Notes under the pieces: model-generated | What the model saw: only the letters and a program-made list of their open reading frames with translations | What the model was told of the DNA's origin: nothing | The model's database searches: none | In this document: positions 34,665-36,276 of the stretch, one piece after another | Position numbering within the stretch: the stretch's first letter is position 1 | Layout: each line of letters opens with the position of its first letter | Translations under genes and position numbers: made by a program | DNA from: Escherichia phage EAWsc9 | Sequence record: PQ341120.1 | DNA length: 64,000 nucleotides | Direction: 5' to 3' (one strand)

Positions 34665-34970
34665 CTACTCTTTAAAAGAAATTAGCTTATTCATTGCTTT
34701 GGCAACTTCGTCACGAACAGCGTGTAAATTCTTAATCTGTTCAAGACGTTGCTCATAATACGCGATTTCATCTTCTTCCAGACAGTCGTCTTTATCTTCT
34801 TTAAGATATCGAGCATAGTCCTGGAAAGCTTGACGAATCACTTCTTGAAAGTCGTCTAAGCCCTGGATTTTCTTGGGTTTTGATGTGAATCCAAACGGAT
34901 TGGAATCGCTTATGCGGCGATGAGAAGCTGTTGATAACTCATAGCCAAAACCAGAATTAATCTGCGCCAT
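34665..34970 (-). CDS. Hypothetical protein
   Basis: ORF 34665..35012 trimmed to internal ATG. Confidence 0.45.
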
Positions 34971-35248
34971 TAGTATTTTTCCTCGGGTTGGAAAACGGAA
35001 CGACACGCCCACATGCTTGCTTCTTTCAGACGGTCAATTGCCGTACGAATCTGGGCAATGCGTTCATGGGTGAGGTTGAATTCTTCATCACTCATTTTAT
35101 CAACACCCGAGCCTGTAAAGGCTTCAACATATTCTTCTTCTAATGCTTTAAAGATTAAGCCCAATCGAACTTCAGCATCTTTAATAGCATTCACTTTACC
35201 GATTTTATCGTCGGTGTGTGGCTTATAACCTTTGATATCTTCAATCAT
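34970..35248 (-). CDS. Hypothetical protein
   Basis: 92 aa ORF. Confidence 0.5.
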
Positions 35249-35463
35249 TTCACTTCCTCATCAGATGCAGTATCATATTCTACCAAACGAAGGCCATCAT
35301 ATCCGCCACGAACAGAGATATACGTACTCGGATAAACAATTTCTTTACCATTCCATTGGCCACCGTCCCAACATTCCATAAAGCCTTGTTCGCCCTGTTC
35401 GTGGAACCAGTCAACAAACAGCTTCAGAGCTTCTTCAGAACCTTCAATTGTCAATTTAGACAT
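35245..35463 (-). CDS. Hypothetical acidic small protein
   Basis: 72 aa ORF. Confidence 0.5.
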   Translation of the reverse strand: MSKLTIEGSEEALKLFVDWFHEQGEQGFMECWDGGQWNGKEIVYPSTYISVRGGYDGLRLVEYDTASDEEVK

Positions 35464-35752
35464 ATTTTTTCCAATCAGAAATCATATGAATCTCTTGGTC
35501 ATAAGTCAAGAGACTACGAGTAATAATACCCTTACAAGGCCCAGAGATGAACTCGAGAGTAAAGTAAGGAACCTGTTTCATTAATCGGATACTTGGAGCA
35601 TGACATCTAAAACGAGAGCCCTTAAAGGGCCCCGACATGAATACATATTCTAATGGATAGAAATAAGCATATTCAAAATTTGTAGTAAGGTCCTCTCTTC
35701 GGACCTTACGTGAGAAATAGCAGAACTCAAAAAGTTCTTCATCAGTCATCAT
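35456..35752 (-). CDS. Hypothetical protein
   Basis: 98 aa ORF. Confidence 0.5.
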   Translation of the reverse strand: MMTDEELFEFCYFSRKVRREDLTTNFEYAYFYPLEYVFMSGPFKGSRFRCHAPSIRLMKQVPYFTLEFISGPCKGIITRSLLTYDQEIHMISDWKKYV

Positions 35753-36276
35753 TGCATTCCTATCACAAAGAACAGTGGCAGAGGTTTAGAACCTTGGCAC
35801 ATAAATTTATTCATCATTGTCTGATAAGCTTCATAGAACTTATCCATCGCTGGTAGGCGAATAGGCTCTTCAATAATAATCAATAATCGGGTAACAGATA
35901 GTCCACGGTACTTGTGAAAATTATCTTCGTCTAAAAATGAACGAACAGTATCATATACAACAAACCCCGGTCGTTCAACATTAAGATGTGGTTGAGCTTT
36001 AGAAACCCGTTTTATTATATTACAGATTTCTCGTGAGCGATGCGAAGAACTCGACATAACAATCACATCATTACCCTTAGAAACCCAATCCACAGCAAAC
36101 TGTGCAATGGCACTTGTTTTACCTGTTTGTCTTCCGCCGTCAAGTCTAAGAGTACCAAACTCTTGCATTCTTGAAGCGGGTTCATACCAGGCGTATTGGT
36201 CTGAATCTAAGCGTTCAATGGCGCGTTCAGCGAAGGCGTGCATTAAGGTTAGATAAATTGGAGTTAAAAATTTCAT
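35749..36276 (-). CDS. Small P-loop NTPase-like protein
   Basis: 175 aa; Walker A-like GGRQTGKTS and hydrophobic-D/E stretch LLIIIEE. Confidence 0.45.
   Translation of the reverse strand: MKFLTPIYLTLMHAFAERAIERLDSDQYAWYEPASRMQEFGTLRLDGGRQTGKTSAIAQFAVDWVSKGNDVIVMSSSSHRSREICNIIKRVSKAQPHLNVERPGFVVYDTVRSFLDEDNFHKYRGLSVTRLLIIIEEPIRLPAMDKFYEAYQTMMNKFMCQGSKPLPLFFVIGMQ

Follow-up and report, generated by a model that had tools for sequence, protein, structure and literature searches.

The genome of Escherichia phage EAWsc9 (sequence record PQ341120.1), of which a stretch of 64,000 nucleotides was analysed (hereafter, the window), raises a question about the evolutionary origin of five small genes lying between regB on one side and an internal head protein gene and denV on the other. 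An initial annotation placed these flanks correctly and assumed that regB directly adjoins denV in T4, so that the five genes were read as an insertion. Is this block then a lineage-specific cassette of novel cargo, absent from T4, or does T4 carry the same genes at the same place?

The block and its counterpart in T4

The open reading frames of the window include the five genes as described: tightly packed, head-to-tail and all on the minus strand (34665-36276), with products of 101, 92, 72, 98 and 175 aa in the order of ascending coordinates from 34665 (Table 1). The first of these lengths holds for translation from the ATG at 34970, with which the homologues agree, whereas the mechanical ORF (34665-35012) opens at a GTG and would give 115 aa. 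These ORFs are regarded as real genes and not as chance ones because each of them has hundreds of homologues. Neighbouring genes overlap by 1, 4, 8 and 4 nt, so the five are probably translated from one mRNA, and the overlap of stop and start codons points to translational coupling within this message. A scan for promoters and terminators gave a number of sites not above that of shuffled sequences, and found no convincing promoter, nor any sigma-70 promoter, for the block. The small proteins had been described as mostly acidic, which is the case for three of the four (pI of 5.2, 5.0 and 4.3 for the vs.3, vs.4 and vs.5 products); the vs.7 product is neutral (7.7), and that of vs.8 has a pI of 8.9.

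Table 1. Features of the regB-denV interval, with positions counted from the first letter of the window.
Feature	Coordinates	Strand	Description	Evidence
regB	34150..34608	-	152 aa from ATG; downstream flank of the block	Pfam REGB_T4, E 3e-72
vs.3 orthologue	34665..34970	-	TadIV-1, 101 aa, 'long' class	70% identity to T4 Vs.3
vs.4 orthologue	34970..35248	-	Acb2, 92 aa	Pfam PF24729, PDB 7UQ2
vs.5 orthologue	35245..35463	-	72 aa	phrog_1986, full-length homologues
vs.7 orthologue	35456..35752	-	98 aa	48% identity to T4 Vs.7
vs.8 orthologue	35749..36276	-	175 aa, stand-alone P-loop ATPase module	Putative paralogue of the gp17 ATPase
Leader upstream of vs.8	36277..36425	-	Conserved, probably non-coding	Model R1, covariation
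Hairpin after the core	36297-36309	-	GCC-AAGGAAC-GGC, part of the vs.8 leader	
Structured core	36332-36379	-	48 nt; P3 enclosing P2, P2b and an invariant GGUAA	
Internal head protein gene	36426..36686	-	86 aa from ATG; upstream flank of the block	phrog_2667, E 2e-21
denV	36735..37151	-		78% identity to T4 DenV; Pfam Pyr_excise

On the downstream side, vs.1 lies beyond regB, whose product is 60% identical to T4 RegB. On the upstream side, denV and e lie beyond the internal-protein gene, and the protein encoded by the latter has the N-terminal capsid-targeting sequence MKTYQEFITEA and an N-terminus like those of T4 IPII and IPIII.

In the T4 reference (NC_000866) the gene order is regB, vs.3, vs.4, vs.5, vs.6, vs.7, vs.8, denV, ipII, ipIII, e. 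Six genes thus separate regB and denV in T4, which contradicts the gene order on which the insertion had been based, and the five genes of the window are orthologues of five of these six. The T4 vs.3-vs.8 cluster (62800-64912) has the same position between regB and denV, the same order and the same strand as the block, shares with it the 1-nt overlap of vs.4 and vs.3, and encodes proteins that are 38-70% identical to those of the window (blastp; Vs.4 66%, Vs.8 38% with an E value of 1e-35, Vs.3 and Vs.7 as in Table 1). The block also differs from T4. The T4 gene vs.6, for a GrcA-like glycyl-radical cofactor, is missing from the block, and no homologue of it occurs anywhere in the whole window. 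Unlike in T4, vs.8 and denV are separated by an internal-protein gene, whereas the interval from denV to e has none. Finally, the vs.8 start lies 40 codons later than in the T4 annotation.

The nearest genomes are those of the Gapriverviruses RZ (98%), UPEC07 (95%) and SP18 (93%), and the records of RZ and SP18 carry the same five genes, with the labels vs.3, vs.4, vs.7 and vs.8. Searches by tblastn over 50,697 phage records found regB in 1137 of them, vs.3 in 628, vs.4 in 1231, vs.5 in 976, vs.7 in 958 and vs.8 in 1008, and the vs.3-vs.8 cluster is present in most T4-like phages that carry regB. The gene content between the anchors vs.8 and regB differs by genus: four genes are found in Kanagawavirus Q7622, another four (vs.7, a 163-aa gene, vs.6 and vs.4) in Klebsiella phage Roth66, three small ORFs (vs.5 and two tiny ones) in Gelderlandvirus Melville, and a single gene in Serratia phage PS2.

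This variability, together with the internal-protein gene that adjoins vs.8 here and not in T4, is what can be said in favour of a cassette inserted between regB and denV in this lineage. Such an origin is nevertheless extremely improbable, given that the orthologues occupy this very site in T4 and follow one another in the same order, that each gene of the block occurs in 628 to 1231 phage records, and that the GC content of the block (0.40) matches that of the window (0.397); a wrong T4 annotation as the source of the agreement was excluded at the DNA level by tblastn. The block is not an insertion, because T4 holds its orthologues; nothing was inserted, and one T4 gene is missing. The comparison across T4-like phages found the genes conserved in relatives, largely with known functions. 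We therefore consider the interval to be, almost certainly, the ordinary syntenic vs.3-vs.8 cluster of the T-even phages in a Gaprivervirus-like genome, minus vs.6, and the block itself is already known and ordinary. The case of regB and denV in T4 indicates that assumed gene orders need checking.

The proteins of the block

The suggestion of a site for accessory or anti-defence cargo agrees with the presence of Acb2 and TadIV-1 orthologues and with the variable content of the vs.8-regB interval between genera. By analogy with studied relatives, two members of the block have experimentally defined anti-defence functions in their orthologues, and a third corresponds to a published terminase-ATPase-like protein. 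For these genes, the present analysis shows orthology, synteny and conservation of functional residues.

The vs.3 product matches phrog_2037 (E 4e-37) and is identical in 99 of its 101 residues to chain A of PDB 9WIW, the TadIV-1 protein of UPEC07. The sole differences (D61E and A70E, window residue first) are conservative and fall outside the mutated functional residues, and S16, R18, R19, S21, S23, N24, K34, K57, E58, K60 and H83 are all identical. T4 Vs.3 (TadIV-1) sequesters N7-cADPR and in this way blocks type IV Thoeris, and the UPEC07 protein has been crystallised and assayed, with the result that it sequesters N7-cADPR and blocks activation of the Caspase-like effector (PMC13243611). 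The binding residues sit in a flexible N-terminal loop, and only long homologues (>80 aa) are active, short forms of ~70 aa being inactive (PMC13243611). The window protein is a long form with the N-terminal loop, and its alignment with the UPEC07 protein covers all 101 residues of both. From the experiments with T4 and UPEC07 we infer that it would form a homodimer whose N-terminal loop sequesters N7-cADPR, so that the Caspase-like effector of type IV Thoeris would stay off.

A vs.4/Acb2 gene had been placed in this neighbourhood of T4, and it turned out to be a member of the block itself. The 92-aa protein matches the Pfam family Acb2_Tad1_hairpin (59.1 bits against a cut-off of 27, E 5e-16), the structure of T4 Vs.4 (7UQ2, E 2e-30) and phrog_717, the family used by Jenson et al. 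for Acb2 (PMC10097602). The list of functional residues was also taken from that work (PMC10097602), and all 12 of the published cGAMP-contact and hexamer residues are kept: in a pairwise alignment, the cGAMP-contacting Y8, H11, K23, R79 and F82, with S74 and T12, and the hexamer-interface L29, F33, A66, A73 and A77 are identical to those of T4 Vs.4. The N- and C-terminal helices, on which all of these residues lie, are identical to those of T4, whereas the central segment has diverged and holds a 5-residue insertion. At the positions for cyclic trinucleotides, where PaMx33 Acb2 has R67 and T74 and T4 has D61 and T68, the window protein has A and D. Cyclic-trinucleotide binding, which T4 Acb2 does not show, is therefore not expected here either, and the protein is predicted to be a dinucleotide-only sponge; because of the diverged central segment with its A and D, the ligand range could also differ from that of T4. 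As judged from experiments with the T4 protein, its hexamer, which in Acb2 takes up three cyclic dinucleotides at nM affinity, would sequester 3'3'-cGAMP and related cyclic dinucleotides, and CBASS effectors would stay off.

Neither vs.5 nor vs.7 has a match in Pfam, NCBIfam or PADLOC, and a literature search on vs.5, vs.6 and vs.7, whose names collide with the statistical 'vs.', returned nothing relevant. The vs.5 product has full-length homologues in about 975 phage records, and its gene adjoins that for vs.6/GrcA wherever vs.6 exists. In blastp, only the first 30 residues of annotated T4 Vs.5 align with the 72-aa protein, whereas in tblastn residues 12-72 are 44% identical to T4 DNA in another frame, up to the start of vs.4; since the homology continues in a shifted frame, the T4 reference vs.5 is frameshifted with respect to the ~975 full-length homologues. 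In the vs.7 product two helices accompany a small SH3-like barrel that carries GPxKG in tandem, and the fold match of this protein is insignificant. It is reasonable to see in these conserved small proteins, encoded beside two sponges, candidates for anti-defence screens.

The last protein of the block had been singled out as a small P-loop NTPase, and in this point the sequence bears the annotation out: GGRQTGKTS corresponds to residues 47-55 and LLIIIEE to residues 131-137 of the 175-aa protein. It has, however, already been described as the terminase-ATPase-like protein Vs.8 of T4 (PMC13601566). The window protein aligns over its full length with residues 44-219 of T4 Vs.8, matches phrog_1488 (E 2e-68), and is encoded at the head of the vs cluster as in T4, RZ and SP18. 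Among 53 homologues, the Walker A motif D-G-G-R-Q-[TS]-G-K-[TS], the catalytic glutamate E137 after Walker B and a C-terminal G-x-Q are invariant, so that G48, R49, G52, K53 and E137 are the same in every sequence; the acidic Walker B position 136 is E in 27 of them, as in the window, and D in 26. The nucleotide site is kept intact, and these motifs and the predicted structure make it rather probable that Vs.8 binds ATP and presumably hydrolyses it, although hydrolysis might be reduced or lost where Walker B has Glu in place of Asp, as it does in the window and in roughly half of the family.

The relationship with the large terminase gp17 is a distant one. In a profile-profile comparison, the Vs.8 family matched gp17 residues 160-265 (probability 83%, E 9e-6), the alignment running from the Walker A SRQLGKT to the Walker B MIYIDE of gp17. 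The AlphaFold model of Vs.8 (pLDDT 88.9, pTM 0.87) is also linked to gp17 by fold comparison; its Foldseek matches are all weak, with E values above 0.001. Searches of the PDB with either the single sequence or the 53-sequence profile gave no meaningful match and did not reach gp17, and the score against Pfam Terminase_6N (14.2 bits) lies below the gathering threshold of 22. With 175 aa against the 610 of gp17 (PDB 2O0H), Vs.8 ends 38 residues past Walker B, in the invariant GxQ, and does not have the subdomain II, the nuclease domain or the TTT coupling motif of gp17. An identity with TerL was rejected on the missing RNase H-like nuclease domain and subdomain II and on the Terminase_6N score. 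Since it has neither subdomain II nor nuclease domain, Vs.8 is not a terminase, and the GenBank label 'terminase large subunit' on the vs.8 gene of one record is wrong. Sequence and structure together lead us to infer that Vs.8 is a paralogue of gp17 cut down to the N-terminal ATPase subdomain, and that it would be incapable of translocating or packaging DNA.

As to its role, T4 Vs.8 was reported to be toxic together with EcAvs2 (PMC13601566, 2026), and recognition by this terminase sensor would be a liability to the phage. By analogy, the chances appear evenly balanced that the Vs.8 of the window is visible to terminase-sensing Avs2. Vs.8 has been likened (PMC13601566) to Ksap1 and Ksap2, two small proteins of phages that also trigger Avs2 and whose beta-sheet core resembles that of a terminase ATPase; these are unrelated to it in sequence and belong to other phage groups, and Walker motifs are not reported for them. 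The same work raises the possibility that non-terminase activators of Avs2 are decoys. Made early in infection, Vs.8 would then engage the terminase sensors Avs1-3 and Upx, or other defence proteins that bind ATPases, but would not activate them productively, and EcAvs2 would be a sensor evolved to fire on the decoy. The paralogy of Vs.8 to the gp17 ATPase domain fits this idea, as does its place at the head of an operon with two proven anti-defence sponges; the sole experimental result, however, is activation (toxicity) with EcAvs2 and not inhibition, and the strictly conserved catalytic residues favour an enzymatic role over a pure decoy. We regard the decoy function, with its corollary for EcAvs2, as rather unlikely.

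A conserved element upstream of vs.8

The 149-nt spacer between the internal-protein gene and vs.8 is not AT-rich (GC content 0.47, against 0.40) and can be aligned at almost every base with the DNA that precedes vs.8 in T4, Kanagawavirus and Gelderlandvirus. The Vs.8 proteins of these phages are only 38-57% identical, and the element is more conserved than the neighbouring proteins. In 34 distinct sequences its core can be folded into a helix P3 that encloses a hairpin P2 (ACCU-GUAAYA-AGGU), a short GC hairpin P2b and an invariant GGUAA. The proposed structure is 85.6% paired in these sequences, and its covariation score of 0.257 compares with 0.077 +/- 0.015 for shuffles, none of 500 being as high, and with at most 0.084 in a control with slid partners. 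The two central pairs of P3 are paired in every sequence and occur as 3 and 5 pair types, G-U included. The extended T4-like leader adds a 5' stem AAAGG/CCUUU (variants with GC, CG and AU), an inner helix CUCA/UGAG and, on the 3' side, the hairpin GCCA-AGGAA-UGGC, which displays AGGAA. Pairing in these helices reaches 92%, where slid controls give no more than 48%, and the close similarity of the sequences leaves little covariation in the extended leader. By eye, two GGA hairpin-loop motifs in the 3' part of the T4-like leaders resemble CsrA sites.

T4 annotates the matching stretch as codons 1-40 of vs.8, and the conserved 149 nt could accordingly be read as an N-terminal extension of Vs.8 or, alternatively, as a signal at the DNA level, such as a promoter or a protein-binding site, and not as a structured RNA. 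A promoter-like TTTACA-16-AATTAT seen by eye in the 3' part of some relatives points in this direction, as do RNAalifold, which on the mixed alignment gives three short hairpins only, and the unexceptional single-sequence fold (z = -0.68). In the window, however, an in-frame TAA stands 4 codons upstream of the vs.8 ATG and the match to the T4-like 'peptide' lies in another frame; no reading frame is open across the element in all 35 sequences examined, and as coding sequence the element was accordingly discarded. A signal read from the DNA in turn agrees poorly with the G-U pairs of P3, which the opposite strand would show as C-A mismatches, with the collapse of the slid-partner controls, and with the recurrence of the core, amid unrelated flanks, inside tRNA clusters of rV5-like phages and siphophages. 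We hold a coding or DNA-level explanation to be improbable, and consider the element likely to be a real structured RNA.

That this RNA also represents an undescribed class of phage structured RNAs seems slightly the better guess. Rfam 15 (cmscan, E up to 1) gave no match over 36277-36425 or at eight loci outside the T4-like phages, and a literature search with the sequence strings of the element found, among the papers covered, none printing its sequence. ARAGORN finds no tRNA or tmRNA in it, and these identities were set aside.

Distribution of the element and meaning of the locus

A covariance model of the element (R1) finds it in the window as a single copy with 63.8 bits (E 4e-16), so a repeated cassette was dismissed. 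By motif, the element is present at 33 of the 39 IMG/VR loci encoding Vs.8, and R1 matches the element at 42 of the 44 vs.8 loci searched; in each case it shares the strand of vs.8 and lies upstream of the gene, next to it or separated from it by an IP-like gene. In Tevenvirinae the element invariably precedes vs.8. A 41-nt core occurs in 1050 of the 50,697 phage records (blastn), mostly with no feature annotated there. A specific pattern was found in 50 viral contigs against the ~0.4 expected by chance, a figure that comes from a rough estimate of the size of the collection. An 18-mer scan of the viral collection returned 61 loci, 30 of them in phages that are not T4-like. Fourteen of these 30 have no covariance-model match and look like chance, some lying within apparent coding sequence; the model-positive contigs outside the T4-like phages number 16, and come from rV5-like Vequintavirinae, 46-kb Klebsiella siphophages and others. 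In such phages tRNA clusters often enclose the element, and in one case it separates a tRNA gene from an intrinsic terminator. No true copy was found when 185,579 prokaryotic genomes were scanned twice, the three pattern matches being at chance level (12-18 bits, against 45-73 bits for the phage copies).

The mRNA of the vs operon would begin with a conserved structured RNA or be preceded by one. We propose that it acts either as a processed small RNA or as an operon leader, engaging a conserved host factor or ligand; a leader of the vs.8 operon fits the T4-like phages, and a processed small RNA fits the others. Possibly, the element controls the expression of the anti-defence operon.

The RNA element is a lead, and the verdict on the block as the known vs.3-vs.8 cluster is unchanged by it. 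By comparison with the characterised orthologues, this Gaprivervirus-like phage would carry the standard T-even set of two sponges together with a Vs.8 that may be visible to Avs2, a gene set which may help to predict host range on strains with CBASS, Thoeris IV or Avs2. What seems worth passing on is the RNA element and two problems of the T4 annotation, namely the start of vs.8 and the frameshift in vs.5: if the RNA reading is true, T4 vs.8 is mis-annotated and its real start would be M41. About a thousand phage genomes carry this strongly conserved element, which heads an anti-defence operon and is unannotated, or in T4 annotated as protein; as a candidate for a new regulatory or decoy RNA of phages it lends itself to testing, and it could matter more than the block itself.

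A conserved, probable RNA element upstream of vs.8

The leader upstream of vs.8 holds a conserved, hitherto unannotated non-coding element, whose helices are backed by covariation on top of a strong sequence conservation. No Rfam family matches this element, which occurs in approximately 1050 phage records (T4-like phages, and rV5-like phages together with some siphophages, where it is frequently set in tRNA clusters) and in none of the 185,579 prokaryotic genomes that were scanned. In some T4-like genomes the core is duplicated in tandem (comparison loci L028, 1278-1437; L032, 1282-1440; and L075), and the two copies differ in helix P3, which is CUGG/CCAG in one of them and CCC/GGG in the other. 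In the Klebsiella T4-like phages, the element lies upstream of the gene for an internal head protein (IP), and not of vs.8.

Inspection by eye of the 3′ part of the leader, in the window as well as in T4-like relatives, revealed a pair of GGA motifs with a spacing of about 20 nt. Again by eye, AUACAUGGAUGA of the relatives looks similar to the SELEX consensus of CsrA, and their GCCA-AGGAA-UGGC would expose GGA in a hairpin loop.

Features inside and outside the block (window coordinates)
Feature	Position	Strand	Remarks
tk.4 position-equivalent	32774-33238	-	154 aa; downstream of the block
vs.1	33597-34139	-	downstream of the block
vs.7	35456-35752	-	98 aa
vs.8	35749-36276	-	175 aa
RNA element	36277-36425	-	upstream of vs.8
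GGA motifs	36297-36325	-	3′ part of the leader
RNA core	36332-36379	-	48 nt
IP gene	36426-36686	-	86 aa; MKTYQEFITEA targeting sequence; between vs.8 and denV
T4-lysozyme-like sequence	55440-55931	+	second such sequence; 42% identity to T4 e

The vs.8 start and the vs.5 frame in T4

In the T4 reference, the annotated codons 1-40 of vs.8 overlap the RNA element (L003 5794-5913, about 64,793-64,912 of NC_000866), where the covariance model of the core, R1, matches at L003 5856-5903. These first 40 codons are without counterpart in most Vs.8 homologues (172-190 aa), and the true start of T4 vs.8 is probably M41 (MRTFLTGPYL...). Of the reference vs.5 (58 aa; L003 4347-4558), no more than the first 30 residues agree with a homologue of about 72 aa present in about 975 phages. 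The remainder of that homologue is encoded in T4 in another reading frame, reaching the start of vs.4; either T4 carries a frameshift here, or its reference sequence is wrong.

Some public labels are misleading: vs.5 of phage RZ (L001 4146-4364) is mislabelled as “pyrimidine dimer DNA glycosylase”, vs.8 of Klebsiella phage Roth66 (L007 3501-4034) as “terminase large subunit”, and PDB 9WIW, the structure of TadIV-1 (the vs.3 product), carries the name “Endoribonuclease”.

Vs.7, Vs.8 and the neighbouring genes

Among 53 Vs.8 homologues, the Walker B acidic position 136 is dimorphic (E in 27, D in 26), while the Glu that follows it and a C-terminal G-x-Q are invariant. Vs.7 carries a tandem motif, YxFxxGPFKG ... 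EFxxGPxKG, which forms a small SH3-like barrel preceded by two helices; its homologues have a precomputed match to PF26834, and a weak match to the 2661-aa protein P0082 comprises four matched stretches.

The second T4-lysozyme-like sequence is probably the lysozyme domain of the baseplate hub protein gp5. Downstream of the block, the neighbours are arranged as in T4, where tk.4 is annotated as a macro-domain/A1pp phosphatase; vs.1 bears a weak resemblance to SLT transglycosylases (E 0.03). On the other side, T4 has ipII and ipIII between denV and e, whereas in the window a single IP gene is placed between vs.8 and denV, at a position where SP18 carries three IP genes.
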